From a virus (taxonomy: Duplodnaviria; Caudoviricetes): DNA of 64,000 bases. Position numbers and translations under genes: made by a program. The notes beneath the pieces are model-generated. The model was not told where the DNA came from, searched no databases, and worked only from the letters and a program-made list of their open reading frames with translations. This document shows positions 9,324 to 62,153 of this stretch, in pieces; the stretch's first letter is position 1, and the number at the start of each line of letters is the position of its first letter. Where the stretch lies: positions 1 through 64,000 of the IMG/VR virus record IMGVR_UViG_3300029258_002326; one strand, given 5' to 3'.

Positions 9324-9337
9324 CGAACTCAAGTTCG
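9324..9337 (+). repeat. 14-bp quasi-palindrome copy 1 (CGAACTCAAGTTCG)
   Basis: Exact match; intergenic. Confidence 0.95.
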
Positions 9338-9360
9338 CAAAATAAGGAGACGAAGAGTCA

Positions 9361-9756
9361 ATGTTAAAGGGTACATCTGGTCGAGAAGTCGTGTTTCATA
9401 TCCAGGATGGCAAGCAGCACTTAATCTCTCCTCCTCCAGGTTGGGAGCGCGGAGAGGTGAGGAGCGATGGTGCTGCTTGGGTTAACAGGAAGAAGTCGAT
9501 GAGTGTCATTGCGAGCATCTCTGTTGAATCAGATGGCAAGCACTGGCTTCATGTGTCTTGTGCACATTTTAGAAGGATGCCGACCTATGAAGAGATGGCG
9601 ATGGTGAAGAATGTTTTTGTCGGCAGAGACAAGTACGCGATCAGCGTGATGCCTCCAACCGAAAAGCATGTGAATATTCATAGGTACTGCCTTCACTGGT
9701 GGTCCTGCATGGATGGGCATCCGCTTCCGGAGTTTTCCTCTGGCGGAACCATCTGA
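9361..9756 (+). CDS. conserved phage protein (HVS...RxPT...HVN.H..CLH family)
   Basis: WLHVSCAH..RMPTYEEM..VKN.F; HVNIHRYCLHWW. Confidence 0.75.
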   Translation: MLKGTSGREVVFHIQDGKQHLISPPPGWERGEVRSDGAAWVNRKKSMSVIASISVESDGKHWLHVSCAHFRRMPTYEEMAMVKNVFVGRDKYAISVMPPTEKHVNIHRYCLHWWSCMDGHPLPEFSSGGTI

Positions 9757-9773
9757 ACTCGCCTCTAGTTTCG

Positions 9774-9787
9774 CGAACTCAAGTTCG
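9774..9787 (+). repeat. 14-bp quasi-palindrome copy 2
   Basis: Exact match; 11 nt upstream of a TTGACA. Confidence 0.95.
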
Positions 9788-9798
9788 CAATATTCATG

Positions 9799-9827
9799 TT
9801 GACAAAAGAATAACACGGTTGTAATTT
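9799..9827 (+). promoter_or_regulatory. sigma70-like promoter
   Basis: TTGACA-17 nt-TAATTT. Confidence 0.7.
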
Positions 9828-9876
9828 TCGGGCACAGTGTCTCGGGCGATTGATGTCCGATTGAAGGGGTGCGTCG

Positions 9877-10284
9877 ATGACCAGTGAAGAATTGTTGATG
9901 TTGAAGGAAAGTCCGGGTTTTGCTTACATAGCTGCTCCGTATTCGCATGAATCACAGGCGATCACTTTAGGGCGCGTGAGGATCGTCAATGCCGTGTGTG
10001 CTGCATTGATGAAAGAGGGCGTTCATCTGTTCTCTCCCATTAGTCACTGTCATCCAATTATGAAGGCGGGCAATCTGCCTGGGGACTTCGGTTTCTGGGG
10101 TGGTTACAACAGGAAGATGCTCAGTCATTCGGAGCATTTTGTTGTCTTGGAGCTAAAGGGTTGGAAGGAATCGGATGGTGTTAACGGCGAATCCAAGACG
10201 GCCAAGGGGCTCCATGTTCCACGCATAGGAATAAGCTGGGAAGAGATTTGCGACAGGTGGCTGGATCAGGCGCTCGGCATTTAG
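9877..10284 (+). CDS. DUF1937-family (nucleoside deoxyribosyltransferase-like fold) protein
   Basis: AYIAAPYSH; FSPISHCHPI; GWKESDGV.GE. Confidence 0.75.
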   Translation: MTSEELLMLKESPGFAYIAAPYSHESQAITLGRVRIVNAVCAALMKEGVHLFSPISHCHPIMKAGNLPGDFGFWGGYNRKMLSHSEHFVVLELKGWKESDGVNGESKTAKGLHVPRIGISWEEICDRWLDQALGI

Positions 10285-10291
10285 GGCTCGG

Positions 10292-10978: not shown

Positions 10979-10998
10979 TCACGGATTGGAGATGACAG

Positions 10999-16980: not shown

Positions 16981-16994
16981 CGAACTTGAGTTCG
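16981..16994 (-). repeat. 14-bp quasi-palindrome copy 3
   Basis: CGAACTTGAGTTCG; intergenic. Confidence 0.95.
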
Positions 16995-21602: not shown

Positions 21603-21616
21603 CGAACTTGAGTTCG
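21603..21616 (-). repeat. 14-bp quasi-palindrome copy 4
   Basis: CGAACTTGAGTTCG; 8 nt upstream of a TTGACA. Confidence 0.95.
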
Positions 21617-21624: not shown

Positions 21625-21653
21625 TTGACAAAGCATCATGCGGCCTGTAAATT
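21625..21653 (+). promoter_or_regulatory. sigma70-like promoter
   Basis: TTGACA-17 nt-TAAATT. Confidence 0.75.
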
Positions 21654-25523: not shown

Positions 25524-25537
25524 CGAACTCAAGTTCG
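25524..25537 (+). repeat. 14-bp quasi-palindrome copy 5
   Basis: Exact match; intergenic. Confidence 0.95.
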
Positions 25538-27737: not shown

Positions 27738-28643
27738 ATGGGTAAAGCAGCTAAACGTCTAAAGGGTAAGCCAACTGGGCGGATTGCTAATCTTAGGTGT
27801 TACGAGACTGTCCATGACATGGTGTGCGCAGGCTATCCGCTGACCGCGATTGCCAACTTGATACAGGACAAAATGCAAGAGTATCTTGATGTGCCTAAGC
27901 AGGCTGTTGTGATGGCCCTTCACAGGTACAGGGAGAGTCTTAAGGATAGCGGGGATTTGGTCCAGGGTGCAATGCCGAGGGTATTTGTAGAGGCCAAGAA
28001 GAAGTTCTCCAACAAAATGCAGGAGCTTGAGCGCCTGGAGGATATGATCCTCGTGCTCCAGTATCGGATTGATTTGGCCCATGGCGTGGAGCGGATAGCG
28101 AACGCAGTTGACCCTGGGGTCGACAGGATGACGAGGGAATTCACGAATGTGGTTGCGCGAATGCACGACATCAAAATGGATCTTGGACTTGTCGGCTCGC
28201 GGGACATCGGTACGATCACAGTCTCTGCGGAGAGACTGGAGGAAGTACGACTTAAGTACGGGGACAATGCAGCTAAGGCATACGCCGATCCTGTATCTCG
28301 AAATAGAGTTCTGGCAGCCATTGGTGCGATACGGAAGGTGTCGGGAGATAAGTCAGTCGAGCGACTTGCTACTGAGATGGGGGTTTCCGATCCTGACGGT
28401 GCTGTGATTGACGCTGAGTTTACGGCCAAAGAAGAGTCTGTCGCGATTCCTGTCGCGAAAGACGCCGGAGATGTCGCGAAAGCCAAGGGCAAGCCAGTGA
28501 AGAAGACCGCGAAAAAGCCCGCGAAGAAGAAGGCCAAGATCAAGCCAGCTGACAAGCCAGTGGCGAAAGAGGCGCCGGTCGAAAAGCCTGCCCCAGTTTC
28601 AGTTCTCCCTCCTGGGCCAGAGAAGCCGAAGATAAAGAGGTGA
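27738..28643 (+). CDS. putative terminase small subunit
   Basis: Directly upstream of TerL; N-terminal HTH-like region, central coiled coil, K/P/A-rich tail; mostly a positional inference. Confidence 0.5.
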   Translation: MGKAAKRLKGKPTGRIANLRCYETVHDMVCAGYPLTAIANLIQDKMQEYLDVPKQAVVMALHRYRESLKDSGDLVQGAMPRVFVEAKKKFSNKMQELERLEDMILVLQYRIDLAHGVERIANAVDPGVDRMTREFTNVVARMHDIKMDLGLVGSRDIGTITVSAERLEEVRLKYGDNAAKAYADPVSRNRVLAAIGAIRKVSGDKSVERLATEMGVSDPDGAVIDAEFTAKEESVAIPVAKDAGDVAKAKGKPVKKTAKKPAKKKAKIKPADKPVAKEAPVEKPAPVSVLPPGPEKPKIKR

Positions 28644-28653
28644 GCTTAGCTCG

Positions 28654-28667
28654 CGAACTCAAGTTCG
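28654..28667 (+). repeat. 14-bp quasi-palindrome copy 6
   Basis: Exact match; between putative terS and terL. Confidence 0.95.
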
Positions 28668-28683
28668 CAGATGGGGATGACTG

Positions 28684-35223: not shown

Positions 35224-35224
35224 T

Positions 35225-38071: not shown

Positions 38072-38074
38072 CAA

Positions 38075-38932: not shown

Positions 38933-38934
38933 CA

Positions 38935-40019: not shown

Positions 40020-40212
40020 AAAGAGAGAAGGACGAAGTATTCGTCTGGTCGCAAGGAGGCAGTAGGTTTTGAGTCACTCAAGAAAAGCGCTCGTCCGGAT
40101 GGGAAGAAAACTGATAGGAAAGTCTCCCCAGAAGCCAAGCGGAGGCTCAAGCGAAACCCTCTTAGAAGAATACTCGCACGTCAGAAGGCGTGGTGAAGAA
40201 ACAGGTGATGGA

Positions 40213-41829
40213 ATGCCCCAGGTGCTAATCGAAGCTAGCCCGGTTCAGATGACTCTCACGGAGTCTAAGAACGGGAAATTTGTTGCTCGTGGTGAGTTCG
40301 GACGCGTAGGTATCCCAACTCAAAATGGTCGCATCTATCGTAAAGAGCTGATGAACAGAGAGATCGGCAGACTTTCGGAGGACATCTCTTCTCGTCGGGT
40401 ACTAGGTGAGCTTGACCATCCATCCGACGGTAAGACTTCGCTAAAGCGGGTTTCTCATGTGATTACCGATCTGACAGTCAACGATGACGGTCTGATTATC
40501 GGAGAGGCAGAGATTCTGGATACCGCAGAGGGTAAGAATCTCAAGGCCCTCATCGCTGCCAATGTTCAGATAGGCGTTTCCTCTCGTGGATTCGGGAGCA
40601 CTCGCCCATCTGACGATCCCAAGGTGGAAGGCGATGTTGTCCAAGATGACTTCGTTCTGAAGACATGGGATTTCGTAGCTGATCCTGCGGTCAAGACAGC
40701 GCTTCCTGAGATCTTCATCGAGGATGTTAACGAGAAAGAGGATGCAGCAGATCTGTTCTTGGCTGAGTTCCCTGAGATTGCAGGGAAGATCCAAGAGGAC
40801 GCCAGGGTGAAGGCCCAGGCAGAGATCGACGCTACTGCCAAGGAAGAACTCCGCAGGGAAATGGCGGAGGGATTCGAGCAGCGTTTAGCGGATGCAATCA
40901 CTGGTGTGCGTGCGGATCTCACTGAGTCCATCCGTGAAGAGTTCCAGTCCGATCCAGAGGTAGGCGGGGCGAAAGGCGTCCTGGCTGCTATCTCTGAGAT
41001 GGTGTCTGCGTACAACTCGGTTCCAGACGAGGACGCTGTACGCGATTCTCTCCGAGCTTCCGAGCTAGAGGTATCCGAGGCAAGGCAGCAAGCCAAGGAT
41101 GCCGAGAAAGCGGCGCTGAGAGCGCAGTGCGAGCTGGTTATCGAGAGGAACATCGGCGAGCACCCGATGCGTGATGCGTTTAGGAATATCATCGAGGGTG
41201 TAGAATTCACCAGCGTGGATGACGCAGAACGCAAGATTGGCATCATGATCGAGGAAGCCCCTGACCTGAGTGAGGGGTATGTGTCTGATGCAGAGGCGGA
41301 GCTTCGCGAGGAGAACGCCAAGTTAAAAGGTCAAATTTCTCTCCTGTCGGAGAAGACTGATACGTTGAATGATAAATTGTTGAAAGCTGTAGAAGTGGGT
41401 ACGGAGGCCAGCGATCAATTACAGGCGGCGCGAAACGCCTTGGAAGAGTTCGATGGCAAACTTGAGGCTATGACGGAAGAGCGCGACGAAGCATTAGCCG
41501 AGGCGGATAATGCGGAGAAGCGTTCCAGGTTGGAAGCCTACAAGGTCCAAAAGGTTGCTGGATTGTCTAATGGTAGACAGTTGATGAGCGTAATGGAGGG
41601 TGTAACTTCCAAGAGCGCAATTGATACGTTGGTTGAAGAGAGGGGAGTTCAAGGGATCCCAGGAGGAGATCTGGAGGCTATGCGGGCAAGGTTGTCCCGT
41701 GGCCAGGCCATGTCCGAGAGGGAATTGAACGAGTCGCATCAAGCTAAGCCTTCCGCATCTGGTCGTCCACAGGTCGACGAGTTCGGTAACAACATGAGCG
41801 AGATGCAACGCCTAGCCGGTCTGGAGTAA
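40213..41829 (+). CDS. prohead protease (T4 gp21-like) fused to coiled-coil scaffold
   Basis: NGRIY; LGELDHP; VSH.I; GVSSRG.GS; DFVADP; long acidic coiled-coil C-terminus. Confidence 0.9.
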   Translation: MPQVLIEASPVQMTLTESKNGKFVARGEFGRVGIPTQNGRIYRKELMNREIGRLSEDISSRRVLGELDHPSDGKTSLKRVSHVITDLTVNDDGLIIGEAEILDTAEGKNLKALIAANVQIGVSSRGFGSTRPSDDPKVEGDVVQDDFVLKTWDFVADPAVKTALPEIFIEDVNEKEDAADLFLAEFPEIAGKIQEDARVKAQAEIDATAKEELRREMAEGFEQRLADAITGVRADLTESIREEFQSDPEVGGAKGVLAAISEMVSAYNSVPDEDAVRDSLRASELEVSEARQQAKDAEKAALRAQCELVIERNIGEHPMRDAFRNIIEGVEFTSVDDAERKIGIMIEEAPDLSEGYVSDAEAELREENAKLKGQISLLSEKTDTLNDKLLKAVEVGTEASDQLQAARNALEEFDGKLEAMTEERDEALAEADNAEKRSRLEAYKVQKVAGLSNGRQLMSVMEGVTSKSAIDTLVEERGVQGIPGGDLEAMRARLSRGQAMSERELNESHQAKPSASGRPQVDEFGNNMSEMQRLAGLE

Positions 41830-41858
41830 CTAGAGCGGCCTAACCAACGGAGAAATTG

Positions 41859-43457
41859 ATGGAAGCTAGAGAACTATTCGAGCAAGCCGGAGCCAAGACT
41901 GTTTTTGACGAGTCTTATACTGGTGCATGCGTCCAAAAATGGGGAAAGATGCTTGGCGGCATCGAGGACACCCATCTGAAGAAAAACACCGCTGTCCTTT
42001 TGGAGAATGAGCTTCAACATTTGAAGAGCTTCAATGAGGATACTCTATCCACAAACGCAGGCGCGTTCACGAAATACGTGTTCCCGATCCTGCGCAGGGT
42101 TTTCCCGAATCTGATTGCCAACCAGTTGGTATCGGTTCAGCCCATGACCTCTCCTGTTTCCGGCATCTTCTACTACGAGAAAAAGTACGAAGATCGCAAA
42201 GGAACCAAGATTCCTCAGACACCTATTGCTGATCTTCCGACAGCCATGGGTTACGACGGTGAATTGGCAGCAGGCGACAATCTCAATCAGAACTTCGCGA
42301 AGTATTACAGCTCTGAGTTCGTAGACTACGACGTAGTTTGCACAGACACAGGAACGTCCACAGACGCCCTGACCCAGGCTGGAACCAACTGCCGTGGAGC
42401 AGCATGGTCTCCCATCCGTGACAACGGAACAGTCGGACAGCGCACTTTCTACGTCAAAGCGTACTACCGCTTTGTCGATCCTGATGCTGCATCGGCTCCA
42501 ACCGAAGCCATCGCCACAATGGATGCTTCTGGCAATCTGATCGACAATACTGCCACTGGCAACACCGTTGGAACATTCACCATCGCCACAGGCGCATGGG
42601 CGATTGATCCTGTCGGTTCCGGTGGTACAGCTGCTGGCGCATTGTTCGTCGACAACACCGTCATCTACCTCCAGTATTTCGTGAACTGGGAACTCGTAGG
42701 CCAGACTTCTGGTGCCGAGATTCCTTCGATTGGTCTGGACATCACTCTATCGACCGTTCAAGCCGAGAGTCGTAAGCTCAAAGCTCGTTGGTCCGTAGAA
42801 GCCATGGACGACCTCAAAGCCCTTCACGGCTTGGATGCAGAGACAGAGTTTGTTTCTACGTTCTCCAACGAGGTTCTTCTGGAGACAGACCGCGAGATCA
42901 TCACAGACCTCGTGAACAACGCCGGTCACACCGCTGCTTACACCTACAGCTCGACTGTTCCTGGTGAAGTAGAGAGCATTCGCCAGCTGCTGACTCAAAT
43001 CAGTGCAGTGTCCGCTCGCATTCACAAAACAACCACTCGCGCTCCCGCGAACTTCCTGGTTGTTTCGACTGCGGTCGGTGGACTCCTGGACCAACTCTCG
43101 ACACACGGCGACTTCGCCTCCATCGAGCAGAATATCCAGAGCCCAAGTTACGGTCCTGTGACTGCCAACTTCGGCATCACCAGAATCGGAACTCTGCTTC
43201 GCAAGTATGCGGTCTACCAAGATCCTTACATGGCGGACGGACAGATCCTCGTCGGTCTCAAAGGCAACAGCTTCCTGGACGCTGGTTACGTGTACGCACC
43301 TTACGTGCCACTACAACTGACACCAACCTTCATGGATCCGAACGACTTCACATTCCGTAAGGGTGTCCGCACTCGTTACGCAACTAAGATGTTGCGTCCT
43401 GAGTACTACGGAGTGATCAACGTTTCGGGTCTGCCTTCGGTGACAACTAGTCTCTAA
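41859..43457 (+). CDS. major capsid protein (T4 gp23-like)
   Basis: PILRRVFPNLIA...VSVQPM..P...IFY; A.SRKLKARWS.EA..DL...HGLDAE; YAPYVPL; G..TRYA. Confidence 0.95.
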   Translation: MEARELFEQAGAKTVFDESYTGACVQKWGKMLGGIEDTHLKKNTAVLLENELQHLKSFNEDTLSTNAGAFTKYVFPILRRVFPNLIANQLVSVQPMTSPVSGIFYYEKKYEDRKGTKIPQTPIADLPTAMGYDGELAAGDNLNQNFAKYYSSEFVDYDVVCTDTGTSTDALTQAGTNCRGAAWSPIRDNGTVGQRTFYVKAYYRFVDPDAASAPTEAIATMDASGNLIDNTATGNTVGTFTIATGAWAIDPVGSGGTAAGALFVDNTVIYLQYFVNWELVGQTSGAEIPSIGLDITLSTVQAESRKLKARWSVEAMDDLKALHGLDAETEFVSTFSNEVLLETDREIITDLVNNAGHTAAYTYSSTVPGEVESIRQLLTQISAVSARIHKTTTRAPANFLVVSTAVGGLLDQLSTHGDFASIEQNIQSPSYGPVTANFGITRIGTLLRKYAVYQDPYMADGQILVGLKGNSFLDAGYVYAPYVPLQLTPTFMDPNDFTFRKGVRTRYATKMLRPEYYGVINVSGLPSVTTSL

Positions 43458-43488
43458 GGCTTAGCTCACTAGTTTGATCAGAACCCCC

Positions 43489-43526
43489 AGGGCTGGGTCG
43501 GGAAAACCGGCTCGGCCCTTTTTTTT
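43489..43526 (+). terminator. intrinsic terminator after the major capsid gene
   Basis: GGGCTGGGTCGG-GAAAA-CCGGCTCGGCCC followed by T8. Confidence 0.85.
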
Positions 43527-43540
43527 GAAGGAGATTTTTC

Positions 43541-43966
43541 ATGTCTAAAAAATATATGCTCGCAGGATTCCAGACCAAGCCATGTACCCATCACGGGGTT
43601 AAGCATGTGGCAGCCGAAGGAAATGCTCCTGCACGCAAGATATTTGTCGATGTAGCGTTCAAACCGGGCAAGATTACGGAGACGGATCTTGACATGAGCG
43701 CAATCGTGGAGGCCGGGTATATTACCGAGGTGCTGATTGCCAAACCGCCAGTCAAGGCGCCGGAGAAAAAAATTGTTGCTCCCGAAGTGCCGCAGGGTGA
43801 CAATGAGAAGCAAGATGAGCCTATAAAAGTCGAGATCGGCGATATGGAGGCGACCATAGATCCTGGTAAAGACGGTGAGCTTGGCACGAAAGACGATGTC
43901 GTAGAGGTCAAGCCGAAGCCCAAGAAGTCCAAAAGGAGGAGCAAGTTATCCTCTCTGAAGAACTAG
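43541..43966 (+). CDS. hypothetical K/P-rich protein
   Basis: AAGGAG RBS. Confidence 0.7.
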   Translation: MSKKYMLAGFQTKPCTHHGVKHVAAEGNAPARKIFVDVAFKPGKITETDLDMSAIVEAGYITEVLIAKPPVKAPEKKIVAPEVPQGDNEKQDEPIKVEIGDMEATIDPGKDGELGTKDDVVEVKPKPKKSKRRSKLSSLKN

Positions 43967-44128
43967 GAATGACAAGGTCGATGAACCTTTCTGTGGAAAA
44001 GGCCAGCACAAGCATTGAAGCAGAGGGGTTCGTGGGTCTTCTTCTTGATAAGTGTCTGAATATTACCCGTTTACAGAGTTCATGGTTGGCGAACCGTCAG
44101 CCTGTCTCAACATGGATGAGGTTTTGAA

Positions 44129-44776
44129 ATGAGTATTCTGAATGAGATGCTAGAGATGGCTGGGGTTTCCGATGCCGATCTTCCTGAGTCCAATGGTTCC
44201 AGCGAGGAATTAGCCGAGGCAATGTCCAGGGTCAAGCATACACATGATCCGGGCAGGCAGAATCTTGTGGTTACTCACCCACAGGATGTTTTCAGGGCTG
44301 TCTTATCTCCGCTTGGTGCTTCGCCCATGCCTATGGCTGGTTACTCAGCATCAGCTCCGGTGGACTCTCCTAATGCGATTCAGATAAGGGCAGCCCTAGA
44401 GGAGCGGGGATACAAGAACCATTATCCTGTTCTTGTTCTTTATGCGCTTAGCCCGGCGACCAACAAAGAGAGCAGGATTGCATCGTTTGAATTCGGCAAC
44501 AAGGTTCTCTACAGTGATTTAGGGGGCAGGCATAGCGCCTGGACCGTTGAAGGCGATCCATCTTTTGAACATGTCGGCAAGGCCGAAGCTGCCATTAATG
44601 TTGTAGTTTCAAAAGCCTCTAAGTTCATCAAAAATTATGTCAAAGCGGCTCAGAAGGTTCCAAAGAGCCCTGTTGGAGGAGAGTCTATCGACAGGGCATT
44701 GCAGATAAACAAGGAATTGGGTTTAAGGATACCTGAGGCAAAACTCAAGAAGCTCTTTCACGTACTGGGCAAGTAA
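44129..44776 (+). CDS. hypothetical virion protein
   Basis: GAGG RBS; in the structural module. Confidence 0.7.
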   Translation: MSILNEMLEMAGVSDADLPESNGSSEELAEAMSRVKHTHDPGRQNLVVTHPQDVFRAVLSPLGASPMPMAGYSASAPVDSPNAIQIRAALEERGYKNHYPVLVLYALSPATNKESRIASFEFGNKVLYSDLGGRHSAWTVEGDPSFEHVGKAEAAINVVVSKASKFIKNYVKAAQKVPKSPVGGESIDRALQINKELGLRIPEAKLKKLFHVLGK

Positions 44777-44809
44777 TCTCAGATCGCTTCAATTGGAAGG
44801 AAAATCAGT

Positions 44810-45484
44810 ATGGCACTGGAACACGAGATGAGAATGAAAAACGTTGTCCCTGTTGGAGAGCTTTCAACAGGTGACTCGGTTGTTGTCCGGACTCGAATGG
44901 GCAAAGAAGTCATGTCGGGGTCTGTCCGGACGGTGACTCCTTTCGGTATCATCATGGCGGAGAGCAGCGGGGGAACTAGCTTCTTCCGGAGTTCTCTCTA
45001 TCTGTTCGCGTCTGAGAAGGCGGAGGAAGAGGTAGAGAATGCCCTCGATTCTCGTGTTCAGGCCAAGCTGGATGCAATGAGTGAGGCGGGGGATCCTACT
45101 GCCTCGGATACCGGGGGAGCAAAGAAGATGTCCTCCAGTATAGCCAAGAAGGACAAAGAGGACGAAGAGGACAAGGAAGACGAAGAAGACGAAGAGTCCA
45201 AGGACGATAAAGAAGACGACAAGAAAGACGACAAGAAGGGTAAGAAGGATGGGGACAGCGATTCTGTCGATCCGGAAGACCTTCCGTCGGATATAAAAAG
45301 CTCCATTTCGTCGGCTGGCGAGTTCAGCGACGCTGAGGCTAACGAAGTTCTGTCTGACATAAACGACATAGCTATCAAGACGTTGAAGCGGAATGGCATT
45401 CTCGAAAAGGACGTTCTCCGCGTGGCTCAGGCTATCAGCGATGCTGTTGACAAGGTCTTGGCAGGAGAAGTTTCGAAGGAGTAG
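44810..45484 (+). CDS. hypothetical protein with D/E/K low-complexity linker
   Basis: AAGGA RBS; Sm/SH3-like N-terminus. Confidence 0.7.
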   Translation: MALEHEMRMKNVVPVGELSTGDSVVVRTRMGKEVMSGSVRTVTPFGIIMAESSGGTSFFRSSLYLFASEKAEEEVENALDSRVQAKLDAMSEAGDPTASDTGGAKKMSSSIAKKDKEDEEDKEDEEDEESKDDKEDDKKDDKKGKKDGDSDSVDPEDLPSDIKSSISSAGEFSDAEANEVLSDINDIAIKTLKRNGILEKDVLRVAQAISDAVDKVLAGEVSKE

Positions 45485-45487
45485 CCA

Positions 45488-46207
45488 ATGCGTTTCAACG
45501 AGGCTCAAATAAAAGAGTGGATCCAGCGGCGGCTAGGCTTAGGGACAGTAAAGGTCGAGCTGACTGCGGAGCATCTCAACGACGCCATAACCGACGCTAA
45601 AGTATGGTGGCAGTCCTGGGTTGGCCAGGGCAAAGGGACCCTGTTTACGCTGACCGGGGCTACCGAGTACGATGTGGATACGATTGCGGACGATGTTGAC
45701 TCAGTGGTTGATGTTGCATTTGAGGTGTCTGGTCATTCGCTGACTGATTATTTCAAGTGGGCGGATGTAGAGGTGAACCCATATCAGTGGATTTACGGCG
45801 GCGGCGGTGGTGGATACTCGGCACTTCTTCAGTACACTCAATACAGGGAGATGGCCAAGCAGATTGCAGGTGCTGAGCAGGATTGGGTTTTCGAGCGAGC
45901 AAGAAGAGTGTTGGTCCTGACTCCGCAGCCAGATGCGGGGACCACGATACTTGTGAATTACATCTCTCGGAATGTGGATCTCACGTACCTAGAGAACCAT
46001 GAGATGTACATTTTCAGGAAATATGCCCTGGCTCAAGCGATGAAGACTTTGGCTACTATCCGGATGAAATACTCTGGGAAGCCTTCGGCGACCGGGGAGT
46101 TCACGATGGATGGAGATGCTCTCTATGCGAATGGAGAGGCTCTAGAGCAAGACACCGAGGAGAAGGCCAGGTTGCTTCAGGCGCCAGTCGGCTTCTTCGC
46201 AGAATAA
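45488..46207 (+). CDS. neck/head-tail adaptor protein (T4 gp13-like)
   Basis: IKEWI.RRLG...VKVELT.EHL.DAI; YALA.....L..IR.KY; .DG..LY..G. Confidence 0.75.
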   Translation: MRFNEAQIKEWIQRRLGLGTVKVELTAEHLNDAITDAKVWWQSWVGQGKGTLFTLTGATEYDVDTIADDVDSVVDVAFEVSGHSLTDYFKWADVEVNPYQWIYGGGGGGYSALLQYTQYREMAKQIAGAEQDWVFERARRVLVLTPQPDAGTTILVNYISRNVDLTYLENHEMYIFRKYALAQAMKTLATIRMKYSGKPSATGEFTMDGDALYANGEALEQDTEEKARLLQAPVGFFAE

Positions 46208-46211
46208 TTTG

Positions 46212-46225
46212 CGAACTTGAGTTCG
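46212..46225 (-). repeat. 14-bp quasi-palindrome copy 10
   Basis: CGAACTTGAGTTCG between the neck gene stop and ATG 46238. Confidence 0.95.
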
Positions 46226-46237
46226 CGGGAGAAAGAA

Positions 46238-47614
46238 ATGTACCACGACATCAAGAAGCTGAAAGAGATGCACGAGGACGTCCTGGAGATCCTCAGCGAG
46301 GACGACAAGGCCAAGCTCGGGTATAGGAAGTTGGACGAGAGCGCCGTTGTTGATCAGATTCATCAAATCGACGAGTCTGACATAGCAATATCCGGTAACC
46401 TGGTTCCCCTCATGCGCATGCAAGACCGCAAGGACATCAAGCCTGCGCAGGGCAAAGAGAGCGATGCAGAGATTTACTTCACATTTGAAGACCTCTCCGA
46501 CGCGCAGGAGCTGTATGACTTCGTGTTGGACACAGGGATGTTGGAAGCCGGTGAAGTCAGATTGACCATGGAGTCGGGGCAGAACTCTGTCCATTTTGCT
46601 CCACATGTGATCTGGACCAAGCCGGACGTTTTCCAGGCCGTACTCATGGCGTATGACGAGTACGTTACCGAGGATAGCGACGAAGCAGTAGACAACTTGA
46701 CTGAGGCCGTAATGGTTGCCTTAGACGAGAAGTACAAGGTTTCTGGAGCACCCAAGAAGCGCAAAAAGGGCAACCCGTTCCACGACAAAGAGGGGAAACT
46801 TTCTGGTCCAAAGGAGATCGACAAAGCGGACGGTGGATCCTTTTCCTCTGGCAAGACCAAGCTCAAGTTCACGAAGGCAAAGAAGGCCAAAAGTGGTGAC
46901 ATGGTAGCGAACTTTGCGTCTACCAAGCGTCCCTGTGGAAGAACTGCTCGCGAAAAAGGTAAAGACATTCGCTGCTGGGACGGTTCAAAAGGCGCAGGGG
47001 CCGCTATGGCCAAGGTCCTAAAGAAGAAGCTCAGGAAAGAGGACATCTCTGACGATGAACTCCGCACATTCATCGAGGCACTGGACTATCTTGACCGCAG
47101 CGTTGCCATGATGGAGGCAGAGCGCGGAGAGGAAAGAGGAGAGACACCCCCTTTTCAAAGTAAAGACATCGACTTAAGAGAGGCTCAGAAGGCCGACCCT
47201 GCATTGGCCATGCCCGACGACGAGAAGAAGGCAAAGCCAGGGGCTTTCAAGATTAGCCAGAAGGCGATCAAGCTGTTCAAGTCTGGCATTCCCGAGTGGA
47301 CACTGGACAAGGCGCTGTTTACAAAGGTCAACAAGGTCATAGACGAGATAGGCTGGGATGATTGGAACAAGGTGTTTGGTACGGAAGATCGTGCCGAGGC
47401 CCAGGATGTTATTGCTCGCTCGCCTAAGAGGGCATTTCAGAAGTTCATGCGAAACATTCACAGGCATTCCCCCATGCTTGGTAAGTATATCCGGGCGGTT
47501 CCCTCGAACGCTTCGATTATCTTTTACATAGCTGTGTCGAAAATCTCCGGGGTTGACATGGCAGACATCATTCTGAAGAAATATTTCCTTACCAAAGACG
47601 AGACAGAAAAGTAA
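46238..47614 (+). CDS. hypothetical virion protein
   Basis: GGAG RBS; acidic N-terminus, basic middle with NPFHDKEGK motif. Confidence 0.7.
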   Translation: MYHDIKKLKEMHEDVLEILSEDDKAKLGYRKLDESAVVDQIHQIDESDIAISGNLVPLMRMQDRKDIKPAQGKESDAEIYFTFEDLSDAQELYDFVLDTGMLEAGEVRLTMESGQNSVHFAPHVIWTKPDVFQAVLMAYDEYVTEDSDEAVDNLTEAVMVALDEKYKVSGAPKKRKKGNPFHDKEGKLSGPKEIDKADGGSFSSGKTKLKFTKAKKAKSGDMVANFASTKRPCGRTAREKGKDIRCWDGSKGAGAAMAKVLKKKLRKEDISDDELRTFIEALDYLDRSVAMMEAERGEERGETPPFQSKDIDLREAQKADPALAMPDDEKKAKPGAFKISQKAIKLFKSGIPEWTLDKALFTKVNKVIDEIGWDDWNKVFGTEDRAEAQDVIARSPKRAFQKFMRNIHRHSPMLGKYIRAVPSNASIIFYIAVSKISGVDMADIILKKYFLTKDETEK

Positions 47615-47635
47615 GTCTCTCAGAAGGGTCTAACC

Positions 47636-48190
47636 ATGGCTCGTGTCTACTACGACGAAGACGCTACGTATTTGCGTAGCCTTGAGGAGGAGCGGATCGA
47701 GCTATCAGGGCCGACCTGCGAATACTTCTCACTGAACAGGGGACAGAACGTCGACGCTCTTTACGGGGAGCCGACCAATGATCCCCTGTACGGTGGGTCT
47801 TCGCCTCCTGGGACTCCATCTAGGAGCGAGGACGCGTGGAACTTTTACCCTGACGCGGAGGCAGAGATACCGGAGCCTGATATTACCTTCCCGTGCGCTA
47901 TGGAGTTCGTCGAATCTGACGGGCGGACTCCTTCTGTTCGGGAGGGTGGTTTCGTTGCTGAGTTCGACGGCATCGTATCCATATCCAGGAACCACTGGGA
48001 GTGTGCCTACGAGGGGACCACCGTGGAGGGGCGTCTACCCAAAGAAGGTGACGTGATTTATGTGTTTGATGAGTGGTGGGATGTTGTTAGATCGGGAACT
48101 AGCGGTAATGTGTTAGACTCGACGACGTACGTGGGATTCAGGCTAGAAGTGAAGAAAAGAACTCAGTTTACGCCTGATAAGAAGGACTGA
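47636..48190 (+). CDS. neck/head-closure protein (T4 gp14-like)
   Basis: E.IELSG...Y; VDALYGE; P.EGDVI. Confidence 0.6.
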   Translation: MARVYYDEDATYLRSLEEERIELSGPTCEYFSLNRGQNVDALYGEPTNDPLYGGSSPPGTPSRSEDAWNFYPDAEAEIPEPDITFPCAMEFVESDGRTPSVREGGFVAEFDGIVSISRNHWECAYEGTTVEGRLPKEGDVIYVFDEWWDVVRSGTSGNVLDSTTYVGFRLEVKKRTQFTPDKKD

Positions 48191-48192: not shown

Positions 48193-48573
48193 ATGATTGA
48201 TGCTGATAGCGCAAACAAAGCTGTTAAAAACGGACTGGTTGCAATGTGCGCTTGGTGCGAGAGGCTATGGGAATCGTACGACAAAACAGGGTCGTTATCG
48301 TGCCGGGAGGACTGCGGCGGACCGGCGTCTAGCCGTGGGTTTCCTCGGTACAAGGGTCCTTGGAGGCAGGGGCGAGCACGCTTCTGCTTTAGGTGCGGGG
48401 GAGAGGCCACCGCAATGGTCGAGTTCAGGGAGCGAGACGGCGAGCGCCACATGATCGGGATATGCGAAGAGCATATGGATGAGCTGAAAAGGATCGTGGG
48501 CAGTCAAAAGGGTGTAATTGTTAAGGAGAAGAGAATCAGCATAATGGATCTCTTTGATTCAGAGGCAACATGA
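48193..48573 (+). CDS. Cys-rich Zn-finger protein
   Basis: CAWC...C...C; CFRC...C..H. Confidence 0.65.
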   Translation: MIDADSANKAVKNGLVAMCAWCERLWESYDKTGSLSCREDCGGPASSRGFPRYKGPWRQGRARFCFRCGGEATAMVEFRERDGERHMIGICEEHMDELKRIVGSQKGVIVKEKRISIMDLFDSEAT

Positions 48574-50156
48574 CCAAGATTGCTCGGTTCGGAACAGGCG
48601 CAAGCGGTGGCGTTTATATAAACGACATTGAGCCAAACGGAGGAGGGAACGTCGGGGGCAAGGTCTTTGTGACCGGCTCCAATGACAACATCCTTGAGTC
48701 CTGCGTTGCCGATGATCCGAATTTGAGAGTTTACGTTGTTGCCTTGATCGGCGTGAGCAACCTAAGACCAGCTGTTTCTGTGAACGGAGTGTCCGTAGGC
48801 AACTGGGATTATGATGCGTACGAGACAGATAATCGGGTGCTGTTCAGGGGATACGCGGACATCGTTCTGAGTGGGACGGTTGTCACGGCTACCCATGAGG
48901 ACGGGGTGACAGATTCGTGCATAGTGGAAGCGGACCCTCGTCCTGTTATTTCATCTGCTGAATTCGTGGGCGTGTATCCGACTGGTCCGACGGGCGTTGT
49001 TCAGACACAGGTGAAGGACGGGGATACGTTCTCCGTCTCTGTGGCCACTGACATCGATTTTGACAGGGTTGAGTTCGAGGACAGTGGAGCGCTTAGGTCT
49101 GGGACGCAGGCGGTCACACAGGGGGTCTCAGCGACCGTGGACGCGACGATAGATGCAACAGGGACCAGTACGCAGTCCTTGGGCGGTCGCGTGCGCGTGA
49201 GTACACCCTCTGGCTCGTGGAGCGAGTGGTTCAATATTACGAACACCGTGGACTGCAATGACACTGTTCCGAGCGTGTCGTTTGGGCTGAAGACGTATCC
49301 GGCTGGGCAGAGTGCACTGAAGAACAGCGAGTCGGCTACTGTGGTGAATACCATCTCCGGATGGAGCGCTTCTGTGGACGAGGTTACGTATTCGACTCCT
49401 GGGCAGCTCGCGATAGTGAACGACACAGTGTACGAGAGTCCTAAGTCGGTAAGCCGGGCGAGCGGATCGTACAATGTTACCGTGGATAATCTCAGTATTC
49501 TGGCTACCAGGATCGCGAATGGGGCGCAGGATACGAGCAGTACAGTCATAAAGATCGCCAACGTTCTGCCCGTGATAGATGTCTCGATAGTGGGAGCGAC
49601 TAGGATGAGGACGGGCGGCAACGATGGGACACCTGTCCAGTCTTACCAAATCCTCATTGAGTCCTCTCAGGATCTGATTTCGGCGCCCTTGCTTTCCAAG
49701 GCTGTTGCCGATGACAACGCGTTTGGTATGTTCTCCGGATCCGGCGACACATGGACGGCCACGTATGAGGCCGACGATGACAACCCGGTGGGTTCTTTTG
49801 CCTGGAATACACTGTCGGCTACGAACCTATCAGGGATGACTCAGACGACGATTGCGAGCGGTGTGAACTATGAAGTTGGCGGGTTCGTGTCTCGGACGAT
49901 TGCGATACCTGGAAGCGTCGACAATGGGGAGATAAATGTAAGGATTACAGAGTGGACATCGAAGATTGTCTTCTCGTGGACGTCTGATGCGACAGTAATC
50001 ACAAAGGGAACAATCGGAGATACTACACAATACATACAGGACACATGGACCATTGATGCGCTGGACACGTATCCGACAAGGATCTTGATACAGGACACGT
50101 CTGCTGCGCTTTCATCGACCGACGTAAGTTACGTTACGCTTGAAGAGGAAGAGTGA
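48570..50156 (+). CDS. beta-rich (Ig-like) virion structural protein
   Basis: T/S/V/G-rich; D.(T/R)P linkers typical of tandem Ig-like domains. Confidence 0.65.
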   Translation: MTKIARFGTGASGGVYINDIEPNGGGNVGGKVFVTGSNDNILESCVADDPNLRVYVVALIGVSNLRPAVSVNGVSVGNWDYDAYETDNRVLFRGYADIVLSGTVVTATHEDGVTDSCIVEADPRPVISSAEFVGVYPTGPTGVVQTQVKDGDTFSVSVATDIDFDRVEFEDSGALRSGTQAVTQGVSATVDATIDATGTSTQSLGGRVRVSTPSGSWSEWFNITNTVDCNDTVPSVSFGLKTYPAGQSALKNSESATVVNTISGWSASVDEVTYSTPGQLAIVNDTVYESPKSVSRASGSYNVTVDNLSILATRIANGAQDTSSTVIKIANVLPVIDVSIVGATRMRTGGNDGTPVQSYQILIESSQDLISAPLLSKAVADDNAFGMFSGSGDTWTATYEADDDNPVGSFAWNTLSATNLSGMTQTTIASGVNYEVGGFVSRTIAIPGSVDNGEINVRITEWTSKIVFSWTSDATVITKGTIGDTTQYIQDTWTIDALDTYPTRILIQDTSAALSSTDVSYVTLEEEE

Positions 50157-59714: not shown

Positions 59715-59820
59715 CACGTCTGGGTGGTGGTGCGTCCGCTGCTCAAGTTGAATAACTAGAGGGCGGGTTAGATATATGCAATAATGTTCCTGGGTATGAC
59801 ACCGCCTACGGAGGCAAATA

Positions 59821-60291
59821 GTGGTAAAATTACAGAATGTGTCCCAGGTGGAACTTCAGGTCGTCGCCCAAGAGTTAGATGGGACCCCTAAGACGAATAT
59901 AACGACAGCCTTTGTTCGGGTTTACCATATAGTATCAGGCGTTGAGACAGAGGTCCTGGCCTCGACGGCGCTGGCTCAGGTAGGGACGAGCAGTACGTTT
60001 CGGTATACCTGGGCAACCACGGTGTCTCCGGGAACGTATTTCGCTGAATACACGCTAACCGATGTGAACTCGAAGCAGAGCACCACGGTTGAAGACGTGG
60101 ATGTTTTGGATTTGGCGGTCAAGGCAGACATCGATACCATTCGGATTATCGAGTCTGGGCGCTGGCGCATATTGAATAATCAGATGGTTTTTTATGCAGA
60201 GGATGGATTGACACCTTTCATGACTTTCGATCTGTTCGACGAGAACGGGCTCCCGTCATCCATAGATGTCTCTGAGAGGAGACCTGTTTGA
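59821..60291 (+). CDS. virion protein, Ig-like
   Basis: GGAGG RBS; IE.GRW.I..NQM.FY..DG.TP...FDL.D tail. Confidence 0.65.
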   Translation: MVKLQNVSQVELQVVAQELDGTPKTNITTAFVRVYHIVSGVETEVLASTALAQVGTSSTFRYTWATTVSPGTYFAEYTLTDVNSKQSTTVEDVDVLDLAVKADIDTIRIIESGRWRILNNQMVFYAEDGLTPFMTFDLFDENGLPSSIDVSERRPV

Positions 60292-60755
60292 ACAAACTGG
60301 TCACCAGAGGGCTTGGGCCAGGCCATCTACTGATCACTGGCGGATTTAACGTAGGCAGATTCCTTGATGAGCTTGTGGAGATTCTCCGCATGACATCAAA
60401 GATTGCGACGTCCATGGGTCTTACATCCAAGGTCGTCACGTCCATGGATCTTGTGTCCAGGACGTTGTCATCTATGGGGATCACGTCGGGTGTTACAGCG
60501 TCCATGGATCTTGTGTCGAAGGTAACGGAATCCATGGATCTGGTGTCCAGGGCGCTGTTGTCCATGGATCTGTCGTCTAAAGTCACAACGTCCATGGGGA
60601 TTGTGTCCAAGACGTTATCGTCCATGGAGCTTTCATCTAAGACATTGTCGTCCATGGATCTTTCATCTAAAGTTGCAACATCTATGGAACTAGTGTCCAA
60701 AGTAGTGGCAGCCGTGACCGGAACATCGAAAGTGGACCTAGAGGGAGAAGAATAA
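60288..60755 (+). CDS. protein with 10-residue tandem repeats
   Basis: LVTRGLG start; (SKV..SMDLV)n. Confidence 0.75.
   Translation: MNKLVTRGLGPGHLLITGGFNVGRFLDELVEILRMTSKIATSMGLTSKVVTSMDLVSRTLSSMGITSGVTASMDLVSKVTESMDLVSRALLSMDLSSKVTTSMGIVSKTLSSMELSSKTLSSMDLSSKVATSMELVSKVVAAVTGTSKVDLEGEE
60394..60725 (+). repeat. 30-bp tandem repeat, about 11 degenerate copies
   Basis: TC(C/T)ATGG recurs every 30 nt from 60411 to 60681. Confidence 0.9.
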
Positions 60756-61063
60756 TGACCTGTAGCACTCCATGTGATTGTCCAGGAAAGTACTATGTCG
60801 GAGACATCGGGACTATTATCATTATCGATGTTTGCAGCGATATAACTACGGCTACCCTCATGGCGTTGGACGTAACCAAACCGGACGGAACCACCGATAG
60901 GTGGGTGGGCTCTCTTTCTGGGTCAACGAGTATTCAGTACGTGGTTGACGTGGATGACTTCGACCAGGCGGGAGAGTATCGAGTTCAGTCTTATATTGAG
61001 ATGCCGAACTGGAGTGGGCACGGGGACACTACCCAGTTCACAGTTAGCGAAGTGTATCAGTAA
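60755..61063 (+). CDS. BppU-N-like (baseplate upper protein) domain protein
   Basis: GDIGT.I...DIT.AT...KPDG...I.Y...DFDQAG.Y..Q. Confidence 0.6.
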   Translation: MTCSTPCDCPGKYYVGDIGTIIIIDVCSDITTATLMALDVTKPDGTTDRWVGSLSGSTSIQYVVDVDDFDQAGEYRVQSYIEMPNWSGHGDTTQFTVSEVYQ

Positions 61064-61959
61064 TGAGCGAGAAGACTCTCAGGTATAGGCCGCCAAGGCT
61101 TTCCACAGAGTCTCCTGTGCCTGCGATCTTTATGACCCGCAAGCACATCAAGATGTACAACGAGATGGTTAGCGATGCGCTGGACAGGGCTGACTGGGGG
61201 ATGATGCTGTTCCTATTGGAAGTAGCGAATATCGTGAGGAGCAAGGTTCAGCAACTGGCGCCAGATCTTCTTGTTGGAAAAGAAAAGGTTTCATACGCGG
61301 ATGATCTTCGCATTGCCCTTCTCCATGTCGAGAAGAGCAACGTAGCCGTTGCGATATATCTCGATTCCAGGTCGTTCAAGGTAAGCGAGAAGGACGTGGA
61401 TAAACTCGCTTTGTTTTTTCAGCCCAAACATGGGTCGCCGGAGTGGGTTGACGTGCTGAGGCACTATGGTCCTTGGCCGTCCGACATGCTCCCGTTTTAT
61501 GTTCCAGAGGGAAAGGCGCGGATTATCTCGCGCCGTGCTCGCGAGGATGAGATTGGAGCACTGAAGAGACGGATACTGAAGCAGCGTAAAGCCATACAGA
61601 AGGCACTGAGGGCGACCAAGGCTCCGAGCTATGAAATCCAAGAAGACGGTTACAACGCTACGTCTGGGAATGCCGTCGGGATTGTGGCTAGAGAAGACAT
61701 GGGGTACAATGTGCTCAGGGCAGAGTTTGGGTACGACGGGGAGTCGCAAAATGCTCACTGGAGACCTGCTCTGAGGGCATTGGATGACGAAATCCCTGGC
61801 CTAATGAGAAAGTATATCGAGTATGTTGAAACCGGCAGAGAAAGCTCATTTAACATACCCAGTGAAGTGCTGGAGATGACCAGTGCTGAATACAGAAAGG
61901 GCGATGCGTTTGCGAGAGCGCTTGCGCCGTATGCACCCACGGGGAAAGTTGGAGGATGA
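61063..61959 (+). CDS. putative tail completion/neck protein
   Basis: L..EFG......HWRPAL motif near the C-terminus; position. Confidence 0.45.
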   Translation: MSEKTLRYRPPRLSTESPVPAIFMTRKHIKMYNEMVSDALDRADWGMMLFLLEVANIVRSKVQQLAPDLLVGKEKVSYADDLRIALLHVEKSNVAVAIYLDSRSFKVSEKDVDKLALFFQPKHGSPEWVDVLRHYGPWPSDMLPFYVPEGKARIISRRAREDEIGALKRRILKQRKAIQKALRATKAPSYEIQEDGYNATSGNAVGIVAREDMGYNVLRAEFGYDGESQNAHWRPALRALDDEIPGLMRKYIEYVETGRESSFNIPSEVLEMTSAEYRKGDAFARALAPYAPTGKVGG

Positions 61960-61960
61960 C

Positions 61961-62134
61961 ATGGAAGATAAGCTGAAGGAACTAAACGTAACGTTGAAGG
62001 ATGTAGAGAACAACCTGATGAGTCGAAAGATTGAGCGCCAGGATGCGACGATCGACGACGCGTTGGAGATTATCAATATGGCCCAGGAAGCTGGAGCCAT
62101 CGAAGTAGACGATTGCGCAGCGTGCGGAGACTGA
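61961..62134 (+). CDS. small hypothetical protein
   Basis: GGAGG RBS before ATG 61961. Confidence 0.6.
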   Translation: MEDKLKELNVTLKDVENNLMSRKIERQDATIDDALEIINMAQEAGAIEVDDCAACGD

Positions 62135-62139
62135 ACTCG

Positions 62140-62153
62140 CGAACTTGAGTTCG
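62140..62153 (-). repeat. 14-bp quasi-palindrome copy 11
   Basis: CGAACTTGAGTTCG; intergenic. Confidence 0.95.

Follow-up and report, generated by a model that had tools for sequence, protein, structure and literature searches.

Dispersed dyad repeats in phage genomes, stoperators, LexA boxes carried by phages and truncated LexA homologues encoded by phages are all known. The LexA box of the Gram-positive type (Cheo box) has the consensus CGAAC-N4-GTTCG. The stoperators of Cluster A phages are thought to stop transcription when one repressor binds them and exist as variants between subclusters, the start-associated sequences (SAS) of Cluster K are asymmetric and include the ribosome-binding region, and phage GIL01 has a genome of 15 kb. 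According to the report on it (PMC6182141), GIL01 is controlled by the LexA of its host together with gp7, carries LexA boxes at 2 of its 3 promoters (P1 and P3) and encodes gp6, a truncated LexA homologue that is 44% identical to the LexA of its host. The Cluster O mycobacteriophages, as described in the sections of their report used here (PMC4351075), contain more than 30 dispersed copies of a 17-bp dyad repeat, 5'-TGTTCGGNNNCCGAACA, with invariant inverted arms and a TTT/AAA centre in 29 of 34 cases that is unlinked to the direction of transcription; many of the repeats fall between genes and few close to promoters, a temperate lifestyle is not obvious for these phages, and the authors predict a dimeric DNA-binding protein. 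The Cluster A stoperators, which the discussion in the same source (PMC4351075) describes, occupy short intergenic gaps. Here we analyse a stretch of 64,000 nucleotides (the window) from a tailed virus, IMG/VR record IMGVR_UViG_3300029258_002326, in which a 14-bp palindrome, CGAACTCAAGTTCG, recurs at 11 positions, and we ask how this array compares with the systems above. The viral record is 157,265 bp long, with 144-bp direct terminal repeats, and its first 64 kb make up the window.

A 14-bp palindrome is repeated across a large myovirus genome

All 11 exact copies of the 14-mer are present in the window at the coordinates and on the strands given by the original prediction, an earlier note made from the DNA letters, and 0 copies arose across 100 dinucleotide-preserving shuffles. 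A scan of the window with the centre opened to NN and 1 mismatch allowed returned the identical 11 copies and no further ones. Most copies also extend outward, as had been noticed, with G at −1 and C at +1 each present at 9 of the 11. The whole 157,265-bp genome (G000) contains 23 exact copies with a CA/TG centre, 9 in forward and 14 in reverse orientation, and 3 additional copies with a TA centre (118984, 119024 and 143294), with no further 1-mismatch variants, giving a total of 26. Thus, the claim of an invariant asymmetric centre holds inside the window but not genome-wide, and the centre is fixed per lineage, not universally. All 26 matches to CGAAC-N4-GTTCG in G000 are members of the 14-mer family. 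Similarity between copies ends beyond approximately 20 bp, and their flanks carry no conserved tag beyond the G/C at −1/+1. The second base outside the 14-mer is mostly non-complementary in G000 (C..A or T..G in 14 of 26 sites) and reads G..G or C..C in 17 of 30 sites of a relative, G009; since the pattern is missing from the relatives G001, G005 and G006, it was dropped as a general feature.

Across viral contigs, matches to the exact 14-mer were mostly single chance matches, and only contigs with at least 2 matches proved to be relatives. DNA nearly identical to positions 28000-48000 of the window had no match in the phage collection, and the exact 14-mer was found in no paper of the literature searched. 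The concern that copies might coincide with assembly joins proved unfounded in a comparison based on contigs only: 6 copies are spanned in collinear order, with 0 differences, by single contigs from 2 runs (X1 and X3), both of which may be the source sample, and the 3 listed joints all lie away from motif copies. Loose contig ends at copies (21599, 21619/21620, 28650 and 28669) are read as cross-mapping over the shared stretch of approximately 21 bp; those compared by eye match the flanks of the copies at 62140, 153416, 9324 and 107799.

G000 belongs to a myovirus, with a T4-like portal, a prohead protease, a major head protein and a tail sheath, and approximately 205 of its 209 called genes are on the + strand. 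The GC skew of the window is strongly positive (0.10-0.30 in 31 of 32 two-kb segments), as it is on the coding strand of relatives.

The copies in the window, together with 2 promoters that adjoin them, are listed below; the division into 8 intergenic and 3 coding copies, already proposed, was reproduced with independent gene calls (ORF, open reading frame; aa, amino acids).

9324-9337, CA centre on the + strand: intergenic; upstream stop codon 18 nt before, start of a 131-aa ORF (9361) 23 nt after.
9774-9787: intergenic; upstream stop codon 17 nt before, sigma70-like promoter 11 nt downstream.
9799-9827, + strand: sigma70-like early promoter TTGACA-N17-TAATTT, directly 3' of the site at 9774.
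16981-16994, TG centre on the + strand: intergenic; upstream stop codon 6 nt before.
21603-21616: intergenic; sigma70-like promoter 8 nt downstream.
21625-21653, + strand: sigma70-like early promoter TTGACA-N17-TAAATT, directly 3' of the site at 21603.
25524-25537: intergenic; upstream stop codon 26 nt before, DHH-family gene (25641) 103 nt after.
28654-28667: intergenic; stop codon 10 nt before, start of a 2179-aa intein-bearing ORF 16 nt after; the relative G006 has a site at the orthologous junction.
29937-29950: coding, at residue 418 of the 2179-aa ORF; encodes ELEF.
33237-33250: coding, at residue 1518 of the 2179-aa ORF, in the same reading phase as the copy at 29937; encodes ELEF.
38402-38415: coding, in a 285-aa ORF adjoining the portal gene; codons R-T-Q-V-R.
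46212-46225: intergenic; stop codon 4 nt before, start of a 458-aa ORF 12 nt after with a ribosome-binding site between; G001 has a site at the same junction.
62140-62153: intergenic; stop codon 5 nt before, start of a 232-aa ORF 13 nt after; sites at the orthologous junction in G005, G009 and G006.

The 2179-aa ORF (window 28684-35223), which contains 2 of the coding copies, has 3 intein-splicing stretches, a LAGLIDADG domain and a weak large-terminase match; its orthologues have only 683-1096 aa, so the G000 copy appears to carry several inteins.

The sites occupy gene junctions

The division into intergenic and coding copies was made with a codon-usage gene caller, and 5 genomes were fetched in full: G000 and its relatives G001, G005, G006 and G009. 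In G000, 19 of the 26 copies are intergenic in a genome with 7.6% non-coding DNA (binomial p = 2e-16), and the corresponding enrichment ranges from p = 2e-16 to 9e-19 in 4 genomes and is 7e-8 in G001. The typical junction consists of a stop codon, 0-10 nt, the site, 2-6 nt, a GGAGG-type ribosome-binding site and a start codon; in some cases, the TGA within the TG orientation itself serves as the upstream stop. In G000, the distance from the end of the site to a start codon is 12-16 nt for 8 of the 21 sites outside genes, and 49 of the 104 sites outside genes in the 5 genomes end 11-20 nt before one, a regularity which, given that both junction gaps are about the minimum possible, may only reflect a 14-20-bp element squeezed into minimal junctions.

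A minority of the sites precede the −35 box of a sigma70-like promoter (TTGACAAAC...TAnnnT) by 4-52 nt, with no fixed phasing between the two, and a few follow such promoters directly. By our reading of the sequence, the site at 147065 overlaps the −10 element of a TTGACA promoter heading the operon with a LexA-like gene (see below), the site at 70083 is at approximately +3 of another TTGACA promoter, and several G006 sites are similarly operator-like in placement. Predicted promoters with a site within 60 nt number 2 of 8, 0 of 4, 3 of 15, 2 of 10 and 8 of 26 in the 5 genomes.

Only 2 intergenic words are over-represented, the early −35 word and the 14-mer motif, and no late-promoter word was seen in the word counts. 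Searches for sigma70 region 2 (Sigma70_r2) and for a beta-prime domain gave no match, HTH_3 had no match above its cut-off, and no T7-type RNA polymerase was found, with the PF00940 control matching nowhere, so that the PF00940 blank is uninformative. The early promoters share the extended −35 word GTTGACAAAC (window positions 8262, 9799 and 21625, and genome-wide), which is itself one of the words with the strongest over-representation in G005, G006 and G009; the non-structural regions hold clusters of these promoters, and the 87-kb structural region is almost without them.

Relatives keep the arms and change the spacer in concert

A search with the head protein yielded 21 related viral loci, and each fully fetched relative contains 20-41 copies of its motif. 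The relatives closest to G000 share its motif, referred to as T-type:

G001: 125 kb; head protein 76% identical to that of G000; 27 copies of the T-type 14-mer family.
G005: 176 kb with terminal repeats; head protein 74% identical to that of G000; 20 copies.
G002: 81 kb; head protein 76% identical to that of G000; 14 copies.

No copy of GAACT-NN-AGTTC was found in the more distant relatives (63-66% head-protein identity). De novo word counts revealed that each of these has its own invariant 14-mer on the shared arms:

C-type, CGAACC-YR-GGTTCG: 30 copies in G009 (26 CA/TG, 4 CG); also in G007, G008 and G010.
A-type, CG(A/C)ACACGTGT(T/G)CG: 41 copies in G006.
A-type with GAAC arms only, CGAACACGTGTTCG, plus hybrid copies with one T-type half: G014.
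T arms with a CC/GG centre, CGAACT-CC-AGTTCG: 20 of 31 sites in G011 (complete, 195 kb), the others being 5 CA, 1 TA, 4 hybrids and 1 other.
T arms with a CG centre, CGAACT-CG-AGTTCG: 28 of 29 sites in G020 (phage contigs in a second metagenome-assembled genome, MAG).

The arms are always CGAAC/GTTCG, with CGCAC also allowed in G006, in which 11 of the 41 copies have CGAAC/GTTCG in both arms and 30 have CGCAC in one or both halves, and the inner 4 bp are lineage-specific (TCAA, TCCA, TCGA, CCAG and ACGT). In 3 T-type genomes, CA/TG, TA and CG centres occur in the ratio 68:5:0. The T-type motif is kept in relatives of approximately 40% to 63% GC and hence does not follow base composition. Rare hybrid copies in G002, G007, G008, G011 and G014 join the half-sites of 2 lineage types (e.g., CGAACC-TG-AGTTCG and CGAACA-CG-AGTTCG) and may be intermediates in spacer turnover.

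Positions are old. For at least 9 of the 26 G000 sites, C- or A-type genomes have a site in the corresponding position, at orthologous junctions upstream of the genes at 62167, 80366, 86567, 107826, 123195 and 147092, upstream of the gene at 133909 (where a promoter always intervenes), upstream of the intein-bearing ORF at 28684 and near 115120. In each of the 5 fully fetched genomes, the counterpart of the coding site at 38402 falls on homologous codons, in phase 0, and carries the spacer of its own lineage. The 285-aa gene reads CGA ACT CAA GTT CG (R-T-Q-V-R) in T-type genomes and CGA ACC CAG GTT CG in G009, in which the changes are synonymous and the peptide R-T-Q-V-R is unchanged; G006 has CGC ACA CGT GTG CG (R-T-R-V-R), a Q-to-R change that fits the local motif. 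A site at homologous codons with changes that fit each lineage, together with the conserved junctions, indicates that selection acts on the DNA sequence, and the inner letters of all sites in a genome have changed in concert since the lineages split. The idea of a genome-wide conserved binding-site system is thereby supported, with 26 copies here, 20-41 per fetched relative, intergenic enrichment and kept positions.

The region 133844-134551 of the genome, outside the window, comprises a site, a sigma70-like promoter, a gene for a 101-105-aa helical protein ending D(V/L)GF and a gene for a KH-domain (KhpA/B-like) protein in all 5 genomes and looks like a conserved early operon. The KH-domain protein is 66-70% identical in 3 of the 4 relatives and 44% identical in G006. 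The small gene that is always preceded by the site and the promoter (g173) has no Pfam or PHROG family, a low-confidence Atlas model and no usable look-alike. Searches of Pfam and PHROGs with approximately 45 proteins left most of them unannotated, including the products of genes that follow conserved sites.

The way in which the motif varies also bears on the form in which it is read. The base at arm position 3 of G006 (A or C) is independent between the halves (11:11:10:9, Fisher p = 1.0), and 21 of the 41 copies would carry an A.G or C.U mismatch in mid-stem, with the predicted stability roughly halved. Positions 6 and 9 switch symmetrically between lineages (T.A, C.G and A.T), and because they flank the 2-nt centre they could not pair in a hairpin. 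The independent variation of the half-sites in G006 thus favours recognition of duplex DNA by a dimeric protein over a hairpin. Degenerate M (A/C) and Y/R positions are what direct protein read-out gives, and those of the present motif would have the same origin.

LexA boxes and LexA-like proteins

All 26 G000 copies and the copies of the T- and C-type relatives have the arms and the 4-bp spacing of the Gram-positive-type LexA box. A six-frame search with PF01726 (LexA_DNA_bind) yielded matches above the curated cut-off (23.7 bits) in 3 of the phages:

G000, 148530-148820 (outside the window): LexA-like protein of 96 aa, 36.1 bits.
G001: LexA-like protein of 159 aa, 73.0 bits.
G005: LexA-like protein of 146 aa, 59.5 bits.

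The S24 peptidase (PF00717) is absent from the 3 phage proteins in the same scan in which the LexA of a candidate host MAG (see below) matches it. All 9 of the 9 PDB matches to the profile of the phage proteins are LexA repressors. With a LexA DNA-binding domain and no S24 peptidase, the phage proteins are not LexA repressors but, like gp6, truncated homologues of LexA. When compared with the N-terminal domain of the MAG LexA, their LexA-like domain shows 42% identity in G001 and 28% in G000.

A 149,931-bp contig of the MAG in question (G019, 'uncultured Dehalococcoidales bacterium') encodes a head protein that is 100% identical over its best segment. In the 2.6 Mb of G019, CGAAC-N4-GTTCG occurs at 27 places and the backwards control at 10. 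Of the 27 places, the phage contig accounts for 25; another is on C66, a small contig that, judging from the spacing of the sites, would be the missing piece of the phage, and the last is at lexA. The latter box, CGAACTAATGTTCG, is located 14 nt before the start of a full-length lexA (LexA_DNA_bind and Peptidase_S24), downstream of a TTGACA-N17-TATGTT promoter, and its box-GGAGG-ATG layout is that of the phage junction sites. Considering G019 and 30 relatives, lexA is present in 27 of the 31 genomes, and NGAAC-N4-GTTCN is found upstream in 22 of 29 lexA loci, 17 of the boxes ending 11-20 nt before the start of the domain. A third ORF of G019 with a LexA DNA-binding domain (G019:C36:195-368, 347 aa) exists besides lexA and the phage copy. 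A literature search for a Dehalococcoides LexA box returned no paper naming Dehalococcoides. Collectively, the lead to LexA given by the original prediction is strengthened by the match of arms and spacing, by the LexA-domain gene in G000, which the suggested check recovered as the PF01726 match at 148530-148820, and by NGAAC-N4-GTTCN at lexA in the clade of the candidate host.

An array of candidate LexA-family operators

We tentatively favour a reading that we regard as nearly as likely to be right as wrong, namely that the 14-mers are arrayed operators of the LexA family at which host RNA polymerase is controlled, either as at a classical operator or by a roadblock. The copies would be operator-type sites for a dimeric winged-helix protein of the LexA family that reads duplex DNA. 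The host LexA repressor is the likely binder, and in the clade members that encode one, the truncated phage homologue may bind too, as a competitor or partner. Host RNA polymerase would transcribe the phage genome in one direction through the sites at gene junctions; that no phage RNA polymerase, sigma70 region 2 or late-promoter word was found counts for this part of the reading. The few sites overlapping or directly following sigma70-like promoters would be in the classical operator position, and at most sites, between a stop codon and a ribosome-binding site, a bound dimer would be a roadblock to the elongating polymerase. Occupancy would gate the transcription of downstream modules, and release could come either via LexA self-cleavage in the SOS response or by titration as copies of the phage DNA build up. 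The sites with their conservation and lineage spacers, the variation that ignores hairpin pairing, the match to the LexA-box layout, the phage LexA-domain gene and the lexA boxes in the clade of the candidate host are all observed; binding of the sites by the LexA family, and with it every functional consequence, is what we infer.

Several observations weigh against LexA as the binder or against the functions that it would serve. The LexA-like gene occupies 3 different neighbourhoods in G000, G001 and G005. It was not found in G011 (100% complete), G009 (91%), G006 (87%) and G007 (72%), nor in G008, G010, G002, G003 and 5 further fragments, and a scan of the collection with an alignment of the 3 proteins found it within the phage family only in G001 and G005, with no C- or A-type contigs among the matches; being accessory, the gene cannot provide the universal binder. 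A symmetric homodimer should not prefer an asymmetric centre but rather CG or TA, so the fixed centre (the 68:5:0 preference for CA/TG over TA and CG, and the CC/GG centre in 20 of 31 G011 sites) is difficult to reconcile with LexA binding. Half of the G006 half-sites read CGCAC and hence depart from GAAC. The cellular lexA boxes comprise 17 different 14-mers among 23 boxes, whereas within a phage genome the spacer is fixed. No promoter is predicted within 60 nt of most sites, and the action of LexA as an elongation roadblock is an assumption. The assignment of the host stems from metagenomic binning of one contig, and a related phage has been binned with an 'uncultured archaeon' MAG, which makes binning unreliable as host evidence. 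Finally, no integrase, resolvase or ParA was found, so that nothing suggests the temperate lifestyle of known LexA-controlled phages.

Alternative binders and functions

A doubtful though serious possibility is that a core phage regulator, dimeric and not of the LexA family, co-evolves with the sites, that the likeness to LexA boxes is coincidence or mimicry, and that the array serves silencing or timing in the manner of stoperators or of the Cluster O repeats. The best candidate is g182 (genome 142204-142761), a MerR-type helix-turn-helix protein (MerR_1 at Pfam E 8e-4, below the cut-off; Atlas features 0.93 with 173 shared; one Atlas structure row meeting the bar for PF13411). Each of the 5 fully fetched genomes has an orthologue, as do G011, G013 and G014, and a site adjoins the g182-g183 pair in G000, G001, G005 and G006. 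A binder encoded by the phage explains the genome-wide fixation of a spacer in each lineage better than a conserved host factor does, and it also explains the drift at the arm position of G006. Position 2 of the putative recognition helix, the residues of which are our own reading of the alignment, is V/I in genomes with CGAACT arms and K in those with CGAACC or CGAACA arms. However, the split between T on one side and C/A on the other simply tracks phylogeny, and the helix fails to separate C-type from A-type, the A-type locus L198 (G014) having RSKDVI like the C-type genomes. Moreover, with g182 as the binder, it would be coincidence that arms and spacing match the LexA box exactly, that phages of this family encode a LexA domain and that the candidate host has such operators at lexA.

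It is improbable that the boxes serve to titrate host LexA, that is, that the hundreds to thousands of high-affinity boxes produced as the genome replicates soak up the repressor and induce the host SOS regulon (repair, recombination and nucleotide supply), the sites being intergenic only because a 14-bp palindrome rarely fits coding DNA. Such a role would suit the 20-41 copies per genome with perfect CGAAC/GTTCG arms (CGCAC also in G006), nearly all with the lineage spacer, the scarcity of perfect CGAAC-N4-GTTCG boxes in the candidate host MAG, with only 1 beyond the phage contigs, and the location of most sites far from promoters. Yet each site would contribute an effect of a few percent, and selection so weak should permit turnover, whereas lineages with head proteins of only 64-66% identity still share one codon position and at least 9 junctions. 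For the fixed asymmetric centre, titration offers no better explanation.

Very improbable, too, is an element that acts in RNA, as an intercistronic stem-loop for processing, protection of mRNA ends, pausing or termination. The location between a stop codon and the next ribosome-binding site would fit (with the 49 of 104 sites ending 11-20 nt before a start), the mean predicted hairpin energy is −7.6 to −9.2 kcal/mol compared with −2.4 to −4.5 for shuffles, and the conserved KH-domain RNA-binding protein is encoded in all lineages. Against this stand the lack of covariation at arm position 3 of G006, where the mismatch classes lose about half of the stability, and the covariation of positions 6 and 9, which are unable to pair around a 2-nt centre. 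In addition, a stem does not need 14 invariant letters, the motif has no T-run after it, and Rfam at the gathering threshold gave 0 matches in the window.

We find it hard to credit that the copies are parS- or Noc-like sites at which a ParB-family protein is loaded or organises the genome, or targets of a fusion between ParB_N and a methyltransferase. The sites are indeed dispersed palindromes, and a ParB_N + N6_N4 methyltransferase fusion (genome 151239-152522, outside the window) has orthologues in the 4 other fully fetched genomes and is encoded directly downstream of a motif copy in G000, G001 and G005. The partition option of the original prediction nevertheless fails on the content of the genomes: ParA (PF13614) is in 0 of 6, and the sole ParB_N domain is the one fused to the methylase, Pfam detecting no separate ParB-type DNA-binding domain. 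A 14-bp target would also be long for a methyltransferase. Independently of partition, the fusion could modify the motif.

Recombination sites with a 2-bp asymmetric core, or a REP/MITE-like mobile repeat spreading by copying, can be set aside as extremely improbable: identical copies in both orientations with an asymmetric 2-bp centre would suit recombination, but serine recombinases (PF00239) are in 0 of 6 and tyrosine integrases (PF00589) in 0 of 5 genomes, the location of nearly all genes on one strand in the 5 fetched genomes leaves no inversions between copies, none of the 3 listed joints is at a copy and collinear contigs cross 6 of them, so that this earlier option falls, while for a mobile repeat the similarity stops beyond approximately 20 bp, copying from a master element leaves unexplained why old conserved positions carry the lineage spacer, and the flanks have no conserved REP/RAYT tag beyond G/C at −1/+1 (no search was made for a RAYT-type transposase, PF01797).

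Other features of the genome

An intein that bears an HNH-type endonuclease signature splits the T4-like portal protein (window 35225-38071, 948 aa), and the DnaB replicative helicase (genome 136515-139124) contains an intein with a LAGLIDADG domain. The tail-sheath family phrog_15433 is matched twice, by proteins of 528 aa (window 48570-50156) and 883 aa (genome 89140-91791), the latter with an extra N-terminal part. Outside the window, the genome also encodes a GroES-like Cpn10 co-chaperonin (125363-125674) and, next to a RecA-like recombinase, an Hjc-like Holliday-junction resolvase (146566-146958; weak match).

Implications

Returning to the favoured reading of LexA-family operators, we consider a wider version of it unlikely, if worth stating. 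A family of 125-195-kb myoviruses, probably of Dehalococcoidia, would be wired to the SOS repressor of the host, with 20-41 maximal-affinity LexA operators serving as roadblocks at conserved junctions that time or gate the lytic programme in place of a phage repressor, sigma factor or polymerase; the spacer would be re-tuned in concert with changes of the host LexA, and an uncleavable LexA domain would act as a decoy or lock in some lineages. If true, this would be a new route for a virulent-looking phage to dormancy or temporal control through a host factor. Cluster O-like dyad repeats were reported without a binder; here, there is the shape of a LexA box, there are candidate binders that can be cloned, namely the host LexA, the truncated phage homologues and g182, and there is a natural series of spacers at the same junctions. 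This series (TCAA, TCCA, TCGA, CCAG and ACGT) makes the question testable in vitro without culture of the host. Should LexA bind, a large phage that is apparently not temperate would be shown to be coupled to the SOS response, and viruses of Dehalococcoidia would gain a host clue; should a phage protein bind, the family would offer a ready-made case of a global regulator co-evolving with approximately 30 sites.

Comparison with known systems

As far as our searches show, what is new is a genome-wide array shaped like LexA boxes, with lineage-specific spacers and conserved junctions, in large, apparently non-temperate phages. Cluster A stoperators share with it the tens of near-identical sites in short intergenic gaps among early and late genes, and the stoperator-like option of the original prediction stands as a fair functional analogy in this respect. 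They are, however, asymmetric and oriented with transcription, whereas the G000 sites are dyad-symmetric (9 forward versus 14 reverse), and Cluster A phages are temperate with a dedicated repressor, whereas no integrase, partition gene or HTH_3 match above the cut-off was found in G000. The SAS of Cluster K, also mentioned in PMC4351075, are likewise a repeated conserved motif just upstream of the starts of a subset of genes; the G000 motif differs in being palindromic, in its position upstream of the Shine-Dalgarno sequence, and in occurring in coding DNA and beside promoters as well.

The Cluster O repeats resemble the present array in having more than 20-30 dispersed copies with invariant arms and an asymmetric centre that does not follow transcription, a likeness of kind between unrelated sequences, to judge from the same sections of the report. 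Their architecture is 7-N3-7, compared with 6-N2-6 or 5-N4-5 in G000, and their sequence is another. In that description, the repeats are not closely tied to translation starts, whereas about half of the sites in the phage family end 11-20 nt before one, and those sections of PMC4351075 report neither a likeness to LexA boxes nor a series of lineages. GIL01 is a temperate tectivirus, whereas G000 belongs to a 157-kb myovirus with 26 sites and no detectable lysogeny genes, and a truncated homologue like that of GIL01 is missing from most lineages related to G000. Cellular LexA boxes, for their part, are few, located at promoters and variable in the spacer, in contrast to the 20-41 sites per phage genome, mostly at junctions without promoters and with a fixed, often asymmetric spacer; what the two have in common is the arms, the spacing and the box, ribosome-binding site and ATG geometry that the lexA gene of the candidate host shares with the phage junctions.

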